Assembly (NCBI GenBank): GCA_964595485.1
Contig: CAZQQN010000006.1
Location: 7,633 to 71,632, forward strand
Source of the DNA: an uncultured Sphingobacteriales bacterium
GTDB lineage: Bacteria; Bacteroidota; Bacteroidia; CAILMK01; CAYYUA01
Length of the DNA: 64,000 nucleotides
Direction of reading: 5' to 3'
The first letter of the stretch is position 1; each line of letters starts with the position of its first letter. The notes under the pieces are model-generated. The model saw only the letters and a list, made by a program, of their open reading frames with translations. It searched no databases and was not told the origin of the DNA. Of this stretch, positions 23,512 to 30,733 are shown piece after piece. The position numbers and the translations under genes are program-made.

Positions 23512-24624
23512 ATGATCGGTCATTTATTTACAGACTATATACCTGAAGAACAAAAGCCGGAAAAACAGTTTGAAGACTTACTAAATCTCTTTCTTCAAAT
23601 TATGACCTACAACTCGGGGGATGTGGATGAGGCCCTGAACTGGATGAGAACCCTCGATGATAAATACCAATTTACTTCTGAAGATTACTCGATGGATGAT
23701 TTTATTCAGGATCTGAAGGATAAAGGTTATATAACGGACGATCCAAAAGGCAATGGTGGTGGTGGTAAAATGGGTTTAACTGCTAAATCCGAACAAACCA
23801 TCAGGCAGCAATCCCTTGAAGAGATATTTGGTAAGCTGAAGAAAGGCGGTGCGGGCAATCATCGCACGCCTCACCAAGGAAATGGTGATGAGCCAACAAC
23901 AGATAGGCGCTCTTTCCAATTTGGTGATACACCTGAGAATATTGCTATGACCGATTCCATCCGTAATGCCCAGGTAAATCACGGCGTAGGCGATTTTCAC
24001 CTTACTGAAGACGACTTAGAAGTCACTGAGCGGGAATACAAGGCTCAAATGTCAACGGTTCTAATGATTGACATTTCCCACTCCATGATTCTTTATGGTG
24101 AAGACCGGATAACGCCGGCAAAAAAAACCGCCATGGCCTTATCAGAAATGATAACCCGAAAATACCCTAAAGACACTCTGGACATTATTGTTTTTGGTAA
24201 TGATGCATGGCAAATAAAAATAAAAGACCTACCTTATCTTGAAGTAGGCCCTTATCACACCAACACCATTGCAGGGCTGGAATTAGCCATGGATTTGCTG
24301 CGGCGGAAGAAAGAAGCCAATAAGCAGATATTTATGATTACAGATGGCAAGCCCACCTGCATGAAAGTTGGCTTGAAATATTACAACAACCCATTTGGGC
24401 TTGATACGGAGATTTTGAATAAAACACTTAACTTGGCCCGCCAGTGCAGAAAGCAGGATATTCTCATTAATACTTTCATGGTTGCCTCAGATCCCTACTT
24501 ACAACAATTTGTAAGAGAATTTACCGAGGCCAACAATGGAAAAGCTTTTTATACAAGCCTTGACGGCCTTGGTCAATTCATTTTTGAGGACTACGAAAGG
24601 AATCGTAGCAAGCGGGTTCGCTAA
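23512..24624 (+). CDS. von Willebrand factor A (vWA) domain protein with an N-terminal helical domain and a Gly-rich linker
   Basis: 370 aa. MIDAS motif DISHS (VLMIDISHSM). Downstream T (ITDGKPT) and D residues. Linker GNGGGGKMG. Confidence 0.8.
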   Translation: MIGHLFTDYIPEEQKPEKQFEDLLNLFLQIMTYNSGDVDEALNWMRTLDDKYQFTSEDYSMDDFIQDLKDKGYITDDPKGNGGGGKMGLTAKSEQTIRQQSLEEIFGKLKKGGAGNHRTPHQGNGDEPTTDRRSFQFGDTPENIAMTDSIRNAQVNHGVGDFHLTEDDLEVTEREYKAQMSTVLMIDISHSMILYGEDRITPAKKTAMALSEMITRKYPKDTLDIIVFGNDAWQIKIKDLPYLEVGPYHTNTIAGLELAMDLLRRKKEANKQIFMITDGKPTCMKVGLKYYNNPFGLDTEILNKTLNLARQCRKQDILINTFMVASDPYLQQFVREFTEANNGKAFYTSLDGLGQFIFEDYERNRSKRVR

Positions 24625-24694
24625 CAAACACTTTTTGCTTTTTTACTAAATACCCATTATCAAATAAAGCTTTACATCAAACACTTTTTTAACT

Positions 24695-26221
24695 ATGACC
24701 AAAGAATTTCTTCAGAACGTTGACCAAATCCATACGATAAAAGATCTCAAAGCTCACGGATACGAATTAAAGTCCGTGAAGCAAGAGTTGAGAGAAAACC
24801 TAATAGAAAGCATGCGTAATGATGAAAACCCCTTCAAAGGCGTACTGGGGTTTGACAGGACGGTTATACCGGATATTCAACGTGCTGTGCTTTCCAATCA
24901 TAACATGATCTTGCTGGGGTTAAGAGGCCAGGCCAAAACCAGAATAGCCCGGCTGTTAACCAATTTATTGGATGAGTACATCCCTATTGTAAAAGGTTCT
25001 GAATTAAATGATGATCCCTTTAATCCCCTATCCAAGGAAGCCAGGGATTTGGTAAATGATAAAGGCGATGAAACCCCCATAGAATGGGTTCACCGGGAAG
25101 ATCGCTTCACAGAAAAATTAGCAACACCGGATGTCACCGTTGCCGACTTAATCGGAGATGTGGACCCAATTAAAGCAGCTTCAATGAAGTTACCGTATTC
25201 AGATGAAAGGGTGATCCATTTTGGCCTTGTCCCAAGGTCCAATAGGGGCCTTTTTGTTATCAATGAGCTGCCTGACCTCCAAGCCAGGATTCAAGTAGCT
25301 TTGTTTAATATTCTTCAGGAAGGGGATATTCAAATAAGGGGATTTCGGTTAAGAATGCCCTTGGATATACAATTCATATTTACTGCCAATCCAGAGGATT
25401 ATACCAACCGTGGTACTATTGTGACGCCATTGAAAGACCGGATTGATAGTCAAATTTTAACCCACTATCCGAAATCGCTTGATACATCCAAAGCAATTAC
25501 CAAGCAGGAAGCCCGTAAACATGATCAACAAGAAGAGCTTGTAGAAATGCCTACGCTTGCTGAAGACCTGATAGAACAAGTGGCCTTTGAAGCCCGTAAC
25601 AGTGAATATGTAGATGAGCAGAGTGGTGTTTCCGCACGTTTGACGATTTCGGGGTATGAAAATGTTTTGAGTGCTGTGGAAAGGAGAACACTCCTCAATA
25701 AAGAGAAAAAGGGTTATGTACGAATTGCAGACTTTGTTGGGCTAATCCCTTCTATAACAGGAAAGATTGAACTTGTTTACGAAGGTGAGCAGGAAGGCCC
25801 GGCCAACGTTGCTCATATGTTAATTGGGAAAGCTATCAGGGAGCAATTTGTAAACTACTTTCCAGACCCTCAACAAATCAACAAAAAAGAAGGCACCAAT
25901 CCCTATAGTGACATTATTCAATGGTTTGGAAAAGGCGAGATGGTAGAATTGTTTCATGATATGACCGAAAAAGCGTATGCAGATACTTTGAATAATGTCA
26001 ATGGTTTAGCCAAATTAGTTGATCATCACTATCCCAAAGCCCGGAAACAACATAAGTTGTTGCTAATGGAATTTGTTCTTCATGGCTTGGCTGAATATTC
26101 ATTGCTAAGTAAGCACAGTATAGAAGAGGGGCAAACCTTCAAAGATCTGCTTAGCGGCATGATGGATTTTGGTGATGAAGAAAGTGGGTTTGAAGGTGAA
26201 GAAGGTGGTCAGTGGCTCTAA
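24695..26221 (+). CDS. AAA+ ATPase of the ChlI/MoxR-like clade with non-canonical Walker motifs
   Basis: 508 aa. P-loop-like GLRGQAKT. Walker B-like LFVINELPDL. Sensor-1 region IQFIFTANPEDY and PLKDRID arginine-finger context, like Mg-chelatase ChlI/MoxR. Immediately downstream of the vWA gene. Confidence 0.75.
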   Translation: MTKEFLQNVDQIHTIKDLKAHGYELKSVKQELRENLIESMRNDENPFKGVLGFDRTVIPDIQRAVLSNHNMILLGLRGQAKTRIARLLTNLLDEYIPIVKGSELNDDPFNPLSKEARDLVNDKGDETPIEWVHREDRFTEKLATPDVTVADLIGDVDPIKAASMKLPYSDERVIHFGLVPRSNRGLFVINELPDLQARIQVALFNILQEGDIQIRGFRLRMPLDIQFIFTANPEDYTNRGTIVTPLKDRIDSQILTHYPKSLDTSKAITKQEARKHDQQEELVEMPTLAEDLIEQVAFEARNSEYVDEQSGVSARLTISGYENVLSAVERRTLLNKEKKGYVRIADFVGLIPSITGKIELVYEGEQEGPANVAHMLIGKAIREQFVNYFPDPQQINKKEGTNPYSDIIQWFGKGEMVELFHDMTEKAYADTLNNVNGLAKLVDHHYPKARKQHKLLLMEFVLHGLAEYSLLSKHSIEEGQTFKDLLSGMMDFGDEESGFEGEEGGQWL

Positions 26222-26304: not shown

Positions 26305-27225
26305 TTAGCTCTGATACCATGGCTCCCATCCCTTACCTTTCATTCCGTAATCAAAATAGGAAGGATGAAGTATTTCTCCAAGAATTTTAAGTGATTCCAA
26401 TAGCCTTGGCCCTGATCGGTTGAAGTACTGATGGCCATCTGCTATATAAATTTCTTTATTTTTTACTGCATCAAGCTGCTGCCATCCTTTGTATTGTTCT
26501 AAGGTAGCCATTTCCGCTTTGGTTTGTGTCATATCAAAACCGCAGGGTGTTACGATAATCTTATCAGGATTAGCGCTGGCAAGGGCTTCAAAATCCTGAA
26601 TCGGTGAATGCTGGCCTTCCTTAGTGAAAAGGTTCAGGCCACCTGCATATTCCACTAACTTTGGAATCCAGTTACCACCAAACATCAGTGGGTCAATCCA
26701 TTCAATTATTGCTGTTCTTGGGTTAGCTACAATGTGAGAAGCTTTTTCAGCTATATCAGCCATTTCCCGCTCAATATTATCCTTTAACCGCTGGCTTGCA
26801 TTCGGGTCCCCGATGCCTTCACCGATCTTATCAAAATCTTCCCAAACCTCCTGCAGTGTATTGGGCATGAGGGTTACAATTTTAGGCTGATAATTTAAGT
26901 ATTGTTCAACGGCTACGTGTACGTCATCCGGACTGGCTGCACACAATTCACATTGCATTTGTGTAATGATAACATCCGGCTGAAGTTTTTGAAGTTGATC
27001 GCCATCCACTTCATAAACCGATAATCCCTGCTGTACCAAATTTTGAACATTGGCATCAATGGTTTTACTTGGCCCTTCAGGTAATACTTTGGATTTTGTG
27101 CAAGCTGGTAAATTAGCTATCCATGCTGGGTAATCACATTCATGGGAACAGCCAACTAAATGATCTCCATAGCCCATTGCGCAAACAATTTCTGTTGCAT
27201 TGGGAAGTAACGATACAATGTTCAT
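26305..27225 (-). CDS. Cytoplasmic BtuF/TroA-like (class III periplasmic-binding-protein fold) cobalamin/siderophore-binding-domain protein
   Basis: 306 aa. N-terminus MNIVSLLPNATEIVCAMGYGDHLVGCSHECDYP parallels the BtuF start (ITLSPANTELAFAAG...VGVS..SDYP). No signal peptide. Confidence 0.6.
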   Translation of the reverse strand: MNIVSLLPNATEIVCAMGYGDHLVGCSHECDYPAWIANLPACTKSKVLPEGPSKTIDANVQNLVQQGLSVYEVDGDQLQKLQPDVIITQMQCELCAASPDDVHVAVEQYLNYQPKIVTLMPNTLQEVWEDFDKIGEGIGDPNASQRLKDNIEREMADIAEKASHIVANPRTAIIEWIDPLMFGGNWIPKLVEYAGGLNLFTKEGQHSPIQDFEALASANPDKIIVTPCGFDMTQTKAEMATLEQYKGWQQLDAVKNKEIYIADGHQYFNRSGPRLLESLKILGEILHPSYFDYGMKGKGWEPWYQS

Positions 27226-30557: not shown

Positions 30558-30629
30558 GGCCCGTTCGTCTAACGGTTAGGACGCCAGGTTTTCAACCTGG
30601 AAATAGGGGTTCAATTCCCCTACGGGCTA
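30558..30629 (+). tRNA. tRNA-Glu (anticodon UUC)
   Basis: Cloverleaf readable by eye. Acceptor GGCCCGT/ACGGGCT (G1-U72 wobble). Anticodon stem CCAGG/CCTGG with loop TT-TTC-AA. T-arm AGGGG-TTCAATT-CCCCT. CCA is not encoded. Confidence 0.8.
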
Positions 30630-30733
30630 CTTTCTTACCCGATCGCACCATTGTAGCAATTTCTCTTTATAAGGTGTCTACTGGAGTAGCTTGTTCAATC
30701 ATCTTAAGTTATTAGGAAAAAACCCTCATATTC

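Follow-up and report, generated by a model that had tools for sequence, protein, structure and literature searches.

We report here that two adjacent genes in a 64,000-nucleotide (nt) stretch from an uncultured Sphingobacteriales bacterium (contig CAZQQN010000006.1; the whole stretch is called the window below) encode a von Willebrand factor A (vWA) protein and an AAA+ ATPase that together make up a typical Bacteroidota representative of the Rv0958/Rv0959-type family. The Asn that replaces the Walker B Asp in this ATPase (N190) is, as judged from its conservation, family-defining and under purifying selection. Both are real genes, with at least 8000 homologues each, and their positions, their lengths (370 residues for the vWA protein and 508 for the ATPase) and the 70-nt gap between them are exactly as the preliminary description of this DNA gave them. 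The family is already catalogued under Pfam names and generic annotations. Our literature search found no paper on the family's function or on its Walker B Asn, and the mycobacterial mentions that we found are incidental. The preliminary description had proposed a distinct branch of ChlI/MoxR-like AAA+/vWA pairs, and a branch with a non-canonical Walker B motif is indeed supported. It had also reckoned with the pair belonging to an already characterised family; the family is catalogued (Pfam Rv0959_3rd, Mb0984_helical), yet it has no established function, and the proposal of a distinct branch stands.

The non-canonical ATPase site

The position of N190 at the Walker B Asp is supported both by alignments and by the predicted structure. 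In the phmmer alignment, GLRGQAKT of the ATPase lies on ChlI GDRGTGKS, and FVINE lies on ChlI LYVDE and BchI LYIDE. In HMMER, a profile built from 64 members of the family agrees on this register, and LFIDEI of LonB also aligns onto the Asn. The AlphaFold monomer model is confident (predicted local distance difference test, pLDDT, 84.6; predicted template modelling score, pTM, 0.86). N190 is the last residue of its Walker B strand (residues 185-190), and the catalytic Glu (E191) directly after it is retained. The alignments show no canonical GxxGxGKT or hhhhDE at any other place in the ATPase. The motifs GLRGQAKT, LFVINELPDL, FTANPEDY and PLKDRI had therefore been read at the right places and in the right register, and the worry that the reading was misaligned can be set aside. 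At the end of the strand, where an hhhhDE motif would have its Asp, this ATPase has N190, as does the family at large; the Walker A Lys and Thr/Ser, the catalytic Glu, sensor-1 and the Arg finger all align to their ChlI/BchI counterparts.

The ATPase has a ChlI/BchI-type AAA+ fold with a helix-2 insert and a pre-sensor-1 hairpin. In the model, beta-strands 128-133 and 138-142 form the helix-2-insert hairpin, and residues 128-162 are the most conserved stretch of the protein outside the nucleotide site: 16 of the 32 residues from 131 to 162 are invariant across two phyla, versus 104 of 508 overall. Residues 240-256, which include the Arg-finger motif, fall below pLDDT 50 in the monomer model. 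A helix (residues 316-334) directly follows the putative sensor-2 motif GVSARL, in which G311, S313, A314 and R315 are invariant across the two phyla. Pfam gives only weak, partial matches for this protein, to Mg_chelatase, AAA_5 and Sigma54_activat.

To describe the site across the family, we surveyed 240 full-length matches, 120 of Bacteroidota type and 120 actinobacterial. All 240 carry NE[LIV]PDL at Walker B (120/120 in each group) and PLKDR at the Arg finger (again 120/120 in each), and ANPEDY at sensor-1 is present in 120/120 Bacteroidota-type and 119/120 Actinomycetota-type sequences. The residue preceding the Walker A Lys (K-1), by contrast with these shared motifs, differs between the groups: it is Ala (AK[TS]) in 120/120 Bacteroidota-type sequences and the canonical Gly (GK[TS]) in 120/120 actinobacterial ones. 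In the set of 80 reference-genome loci that we used for genomic context, GLRGQAKT is invariant in the Bacteroidota-type loci (78/78), as is the Walker B Asn. The ATPase of Thermomicrobium also has Ala at K-1. Across Bacteroidota and Actinomycetota, there is no variation at K81, N190, E191, D194, N232, R249 or R315, and at least 90% of the sequences have T82. Nearly all full-length representatives at 50% identity likewise have Asn at Walker B, the exceptions being P0217 with Asp and P0146 with Gln.

Taking these counts together, the Walker A Ala is a lineage trait of the Bacteroidota type. Because the other catalytic residues are all invariant (T82 nearly so), the site as a whole is better regarded as non-canonical than as degenerate or decayed. 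The preliminary description had called the ATPase non-canonical and its Walker motifs degenerate. "Degenerate" is misleading for a site of which K81, E191, N232 and R249 as well as R315 and N190 itself do not vary in two phyla; "non-canonical" holds family-wide for Walker B and only for one lineage at Walker A, where actinobacteria keep Gly. Its suggestion to survey the Asn-for-Asp replacement among relatives has thus found the Asn conserved in the Bacteroidota type and beyond.

Some members with unusual ATPase genes should also be recorded. The Asp of P0217 belongs to a sister ATPase lineage on a metagenome contig (Ga0394879_0000009; locus L085, 6001-7395; P0515/P0217) whose Walker B reads IDELPDL. 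No vWA partner lies within 6 kb of this ATPase; immediately upstream of it are a PAS/GAF histidine kinase and a genuine σ54 activator, and an unannotated 1242-residue protein is encoded nearby. This Asp-retaining lineage may represent the condition that preceded the exchange of Asp for Asn. The Gln of P0146 is that of ENA scaffold_4962 (L089, 5001-7461; P0511/P0146), in which the motif is IQELPDL. One Saprospiraceae metagenome-assembled genome (MAG; L064, 5986-7465) has the ATPase divided between two open reading frames (ORFs) of 370 and 139 residues, which could reflect a frameshift, pseudogene formation or faulty assembly. The actinobacterial-type P0423 (683 residues) has an extra region matching PF20030 and represents a longer fusion form of the ATPase.

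The vWA partner, gene order and family membership

The vWA protein has an intact metal-ion-dependent adhesion site (MIDAS): D187, S189, S191, T250 and D278 are invariant in 67 vWA sequences, and the DxSxS motif is also kept in the actinobacterial and Thermomicrobium partners. Upstream of the vWA core, E94, I97, R98, L102, F106, G107, K108, G115, H117, G123, E127 and D139 are invariant or near-invariant. They lie in a segment (residues 90-146) that is modelled at a mean pLDDT of 29-62. Both the actinobacterial partners and the NCBIfam cobaltochelatase model TIGR02442, the latter with its pre-vWA region, align to this segment. In BLASTP, residues 60-368 align with the C-terminal ~315 residues of the 671-residue actinobacterial partners (E 2e-35 for Microlunatus, and 8e-30). 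The Pfam family PF27098 (Rv0959_3rd) is precomputed on relatives that are up to 97% identical to the window protein, and a local Pfam scan of the window protein itself did not report it; the relatives' annotation, the BLASTP alignment and the invariant MIDAS identify it as a partner of this type. PF27532 (Mb0984_helical), the N-terminal domain of the long form of ~670 residues, is not listed for the relatives. Since the protein has 370 residues, aligns only to the C-terminal part of the long partners and has relatives without PF27532, we regard it as a short-form variant. A short partner, of 369 residues, is found in L089 as well.

From Rv0959_3rd on the relatives, the partner in Lapillicoccus and the alignment to actinobacterial partners, we infer that the pair is the Bacteroidota short-form counterpart of the Mycobacterium tuberculosis Rv0958/Rv0959 type; the putative link to Rv0958 itself was drawn from Pfam domain names, gene adjacency, the position of purN-purH in Tsukamurella (~3 kb upstream of the pair) and the matching annotation and length of the mycobacterial "magnesium chelatase" genes. 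In Lapillicoccus, the ATPase gene is followed after 3 nt by a gene for a 671-residue protein with the Pfam domains Mb0984_helical, VWA_2 and Rv0959_3rd. The window ATPase carries all four family signatures, GxRGQ[AG]K[ST], NE[LIV]PDL, ANPEDY and PLKDR, and it shares them with the ATPases of the actinobacterial pairs (GxRGQxK[ST], NELPDL, ANPEDY and PLKDR), the group of Rv0958, which is annotated "possible magnesium chelatase", and of its orthologues such as MSMEG_5512 and MMAR_4541. The actinobacterial pairs of this type are likewise adjacent genes, with a partner that has DxSxS and Rv0959_3rd. They differ from the window pair in that the ATPase gene precedes the vWA gene, whereas the vWA gene comes first here; in that the partner has ~660-700 residues with the extra N-terminal Mb0984_helical domain, against 370 here; and in a canonical Walker A, GK[TS], where the window ATPase has AKT.

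The family is chromosomal, huge and strongly conserved. For each protein, the homologue ranked 120th still shares about 65-70% identity, and an exhaustive search of 50%-identity representatives returned 3241 clusters at E <= 1e-3 and 616 at E <= 1e-30. Against the actinobacterial members, the ATPase is 39-42% identical over its full length. In reference genomes, the loci are spread over Cytophagales, Chitinophagales, Saprospiraceae, Flavobacteriales (Flavobacterium, Chryseobacterium, Kaistella) and Ignavibacteria; the divergent branch is actinobacterial (Lapillicoccus, Microlunatus, Nocardioidaceae), and Thermomicrobium roseum, Tsukamurella, Nocardia and Nonomuraea are carriers too. The closest relative, L001, is an uncultured Sphingobacteriales MAG. 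The very high sequence conservation fits a housekeeping role.

The two genes are adjacent on one strand, with the vWA gene first, in 64 of the 80 Bacteroidota/Ignavibacteria loci, at gaps of -15 to 232 nt. Of the remaining loci, 5 are cut at a contig end, and 11, mostly Saprospiraceae, have unrelated genes upstream of the ATPase. Adjacency on one strand is seen in the window and also in L081, L083, L084 and L089. The ATPase gene comes first in Lapillicoccus, Tsukamurella, Thermomicrobium and the L089 contig, where the order is ATPase, the short vWA gene and a prefoldin gene; because it also encodes prefoldin, this contig is probably archaeal. In Microlunatus, the partner lies 3 kb downstream of the ATPase, beyond a RecQ gene. 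The vWA-first order, which the preliminary description had noted as unusual, is thus no property of the family. It is specific to Bacteroidota/Ignavibacteria, and since L089 combines the ATPase-first order with a 369-residue partner, it is not tied to the short form. The Bacteroidota loci without an adjacent vWA gene are L006, L008, L010, L012, L015, L018, L020, L022, L023, L025 and L028; in L015, L018, L022 and L025, the ATPase is followed by a conserved pair of ORFs of ~765 and ~590 residues.

The vWA gene is the only conserved neighbour of the ATPase. In an all-against-all ORF clustering of the 80 loci, it recurred in 62 loci, compared with 9 for the next cluster; no conserved third gene or client gene was found in this clustering, and the actinomycete, Thermomicrobium and other contexts share none further. 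The NRDE/TANGO2 and BtuF-like genes that flank the pair in the window were considered as functional context and rejected, because they recur only in L001; the preliminary description had rightly seen no pathway in them. The BtuF-like gene, which encodes a Peripla_BP_2 protein, is convergent with the ATPase gene, their stop codons being 83 nt apart. Its product begins directly with MNIVSLLPNATEIV, without an obvious signal peptide, and for this reason the earlier label "cytoplasmic" looks right. In Thermomicrobium roseum (L083, 5069-5977), a ~300-residue gene with the annotation "type II secretion system protein E" precedes the ATPase–vWA pair on its strand, at a distance of 27 nt; it could be a third component peculiar to this lineage, or stand there by chance.

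The positions of the pair and its motifs are collected in the table below. Since a terminator scan of the 70-nt spacer between the two genes returned zero terminator-like sites, they are probably co-transcribed; promoter and terminator scans as a whole gave counts not above those of shuffled sequence, in a scan that does not cover Bacteroidota promoters. The single tRNA listed in the table is the only RNA gene that Rfam or ARAGORN reported in the 64-kb window.

Table. Positions of the gene pair, its motifs and nearby features in the window
Feature	Residues	Position	Strand	Remarks
vWA/MIDAS adaptor gene	1-370	23512..24624	+	short form of the Rv0959-type partner
Conserved segment before the vWA core	90-146	23779..23949	+	candidate ATPase-engaging linker or "shaft"
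MIDAS DxSxS (DISHS)	187-191	24070..24084	+	
MIDAS T250	250	within 24256-24267	+	
MIDAS D278	278	within 24337-24354	+	
Spacer between the vWA and ATPase genes		24625..24694		70 nt
ChlI/BchI-like AAA+ ATPase gene	1-508	24695..26221	+	Rv0958-type motor
Walker A GLRGQAKT	75-82	24917..24940	+	Ala at K-1; aligned to ChlI GDRGTGKS
Helix-2-insert hairpin and following loop	128-162	25076..25180	+	candidate pore or partner-contact element
Walker B LFVINELPDL	186-195	25250..25279	+	register from HMMER alignments and model strand 185-190
N190	190	25262-25264	+	replaces the Walker B Asp
Sensor-1 region FTANPEDY	229-236	25379..25402	+	N232; aligned to ChlI/BchI GNPEE
Arg-finger region PLKDRI	245-250	25427..25444	+	R249; aligned to ChlI/BchI LLDRF
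Putative sensor-2 region GVSARL		25625..25642	+	R315; placed by position, no covering sequence alignment
C-terminal extension past the AAA+ lid	~340-490	25712..26164	+	family-specific
BtuF/IsdE-like gene		26305-27225	-	
tRNA-Glu (TTC)		30558-30630	+	

Proposed mechanism and competing explanations

Based on these findings, we propose, with moderate confidence, that the pair is a self-contained chromosomal motor-adaptor remodelling machine with a housekeeping function, the Bacteroidota form of the Rv0958/Rv0959 family. The proposal is founded on the ChlI/BchI fold and motif register, the invariant catalytic residues, the invariant MIDAS, the recurrent pairing of the two genes and their non-mobile distribution. 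The two-gene motor-adaptor logic is shared with CobS-CobT, NorQ-NorD, CbbQ-CbbO, RavA-ViaA and CoxD-CoxE. The fold of the window ATPase is nearer to BchI than to the MoxR members, its score for the MoxR Pfam family AAA_3 (PF07726) is 16.4 bits against a gathering cutoff of 27, and the Walker B Asn sets it apart from the MoxR-class pairs, whose clients or effectors are known (CobN, NorB, Rubisco). The ATPase would, on the model of CobS-CobT, NorQ-NorD, CbbQ-CbbO and BchI-BchD, form a hexameric ring, with a pore that may be lined by the very conserved helix-2 inserts. The vWA protein would dock on this ring, possibly inserting its flexible conserved segment (residues ~90-146) into the pore, and the MIDAS metal could capture an acidic residue of a conserved client in the cell, which would then be remodelled under nucleotide control; this might serve to insert a cofactor or metal, or to assemble a complex. 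Since all other catalytic residues are under strong purifying selection, the Asn would make the nucleotide cycle slow or partner-gated rather than abolish it, and the invariant D194 of NELPDL might compensate for Asn190. The motor-adaptor-effector model and the shaft-in-pore geometry of related pairs come from a preprint on CobSTN, in which the helix-2 (H2) inserts of CobS encircle the CobT shaft (10.64898/2026.07.21.739949), and the "shaft" and pore-contact roles suggested here are taken over from this CobS-CobT analogy.

Several points weigh against this proposal. The vWA model is only moderate (pLDDT 66.5), with the proposed "shaft" segment modelled at low confidence. The two proteins may not be strictly coupled: among the 75 non-truncated Bacteroidota loci, 11 lack a vWA gene directly beside the ATPase gene, and so does Microlunatus. 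What mycobacterial experiments suggest is indirect and does not converge: the mycobacterial counterpart is a ClpC1 interactor and is on the high-confidence list of an RNA-polymerase-targeted pull-down, without DNA association; an insertion 49 bp upstream of mmar_4541 surfaced in a B12-resistance screen; and knockdown by CRISPR interference lowered ethidium bromide uptake. Finally, a survey of P-loop NTPases treats the Walker B Asp as almost strictly conserved and mechanistically central (10.1101/2022.06.23.497301), so that the Asn could mean zero hydrolysis.

This last point leads to a possible, though not favoured, explanation, in which the Asn abolishes hydrolysis and the ring is a nucleotide-binding switch or pseudo-ATPase, an ATP-sensing scaffold for the vWA protein instead of a motor. 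In the same survey, the Walker B Asp is central to catalysis and is replaced only by Glu, and AAA+ proteins with non-canonical sites, such as torsinA and DnaC, show very low activity and have been proposed to be scaffolds or switches (10.1101/2022.06.23.497301). Like them, the window ATPase departs in a conserved way from canonical P-loop/Walker B chemistry, and the Asn is universal in the family, to which the Bacteroidota members add Ala at K-1. The departures are not the same, however: torsinA and DnaC substitute the Walker A Ser/Thr (K+1), and torsinA also the catalytic Glu (D+1) (10.1101/2022.06.23.497301), whereas the window ATPase replaces the Walker B Asp itself and retains the K+1 Thr and the D+1 Glu. 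It would be hard to explain why E191, N232, R249 and R315 are invariant in two phyla if hydrolysis were irrelevant; moreover, the actinobacterial Walker A is fully canonical, and D194, four residues past the Asn, could compensate. Another idea, which we hold to be rather unlikely, is that the family hydrolyses ATP without a Walker B Asp by using Asn190 together with D194 as a relocated acidic residue, or else a residue or metal from the vWA/MIDAS partner.

Homologues bear the name "magnesium chelatase subunit I" in databases, and the pair might accordingly be taken for the motor of a genuine class I Mg- or Co-chelatase (I/D-type subunits). ChlI, BchI and BchD do provide the closest solved structures and profiles, with BchI/ChlI the best sequence matches of the ATPase in the PDB, and a gene for a BtuF-like binding protein adjoins the pair. 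Nevertheless, we consider this very unlikely. The curated NCBIfam cutoffs for chelatases are missed more than tenfold: the ATPase scores 19.1 bits against 466.95 for BchI-ChlI (TIGR02030) and 38.8 against 499.55 for BchD-ChlD (TIGR02031), and for cobaltochelatase (TIGR02442) the ATPase and the vWA protein reach 23.4 and 28.4 against 779.45. The BchI/BchD system has an H subunit, whereas in the window no ORF has the size of BchH/ChlH/CobN (~1200 residues) except SecA, the largest, and none recurs in the 80 loci. ChlI/BchI keep the canonical GxxGxGKS and hhhhDE where the window ATPase has Ala and Asn, and lack the extra C-terminal domain of ~150 residues that it carries; BchD fuses an AAA+ N-domain to its vWA domain, and the window partner has none. 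Chryseobacterium, Flavobacterium, Kaistella and Mycobacteriales, all of them non-phototrophs, commonly carry the family, and the BtuF-like neighbour is conserved in the closest relative only.

A MoxR-vWA biological-conflict (anti-phage) module with attenuated ATPase chemistry, which the preliminary description had entertained, is contradicted by our results and highly improbable. The two-gene AAA+/vWA architecture and the variable genomic neighbourhoods would suit such a module, and AAA+/vWA pairs do occur in some conflict systems. However, no PADLOC model matches either protein, there are zero matches in phage records, and only 4 of 72,556 plasmid records match, all of them non-mobilizable replicons of 0.4-11.8 Mb. 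The neighbourhood contains no conserved gene for an effector such as a nuclease or protease, and the sequence conservation is far above what is usual for defence genes.

The label "sigma 54-interacting transcriptional regulator", which NCBI gives to homologues, can be dismissed almost outright: Pfam Sigma54_activat does match above its cutoff (25.0 versus 20.2 bits), and M. smegmatis MSMEG_5512 is the protein on the pull-down list mentioned above, but the match spans only 58 of 168 profile positions, in the generic Walker B to sensor-1 core, tagged MSMEG_5512 recovered no DNA, and the defining features of a σ54-dependent activator are missing, as the GAFTGA-like loop (G[AS]F[TS]G[AG]) is absent from the window protein and from 64/64 aligned members and no HTH_8 or other DNA-binding Pfam family is found at E <= 0.01. 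For comparison, the genuine activator in L085 consists of Response_reg, Sigma54_activat and HTH_8, a helix-turn-helix domain. The family is, in addition, abundant in Actinomycetota, which are not known to have σ54.

Meaning for the family

Cofactor insertion and enzyme repair repeatedly make use of AAA+/vWA pairs, as in the Mg and Co chelatases, NorQD and CbbQO. The family described here, which includes M. tuberculosis genes, is among the largest AAA+/vWA pairs never studied, and databases give its members the wrong names "magnesium chelatase", "σ54 regulator" or "Ca-activated chloride channel homolog"; a correct annotation would halt the spread of the chelatase and σ54 labels to thousands of genomes. 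An anomaly in the catalytic site is surprising in so huge and conserved a family, and it is easy to test. The contrast between the short, vWA-first form of Bacteroidota and the long, ATPase-first form of actinobacteria offers a handle for mapping the motor-adaptor interface. The family with Asn at Walker B is a notable exception among P-loop NTPases and a ready test case for models of their catalysis. If it is true that these proteins hydrolyse ATP without the Walker B Asp, they would embody a distinct catalytic solution within the P-loop NTPases, coupled to a conserved client.

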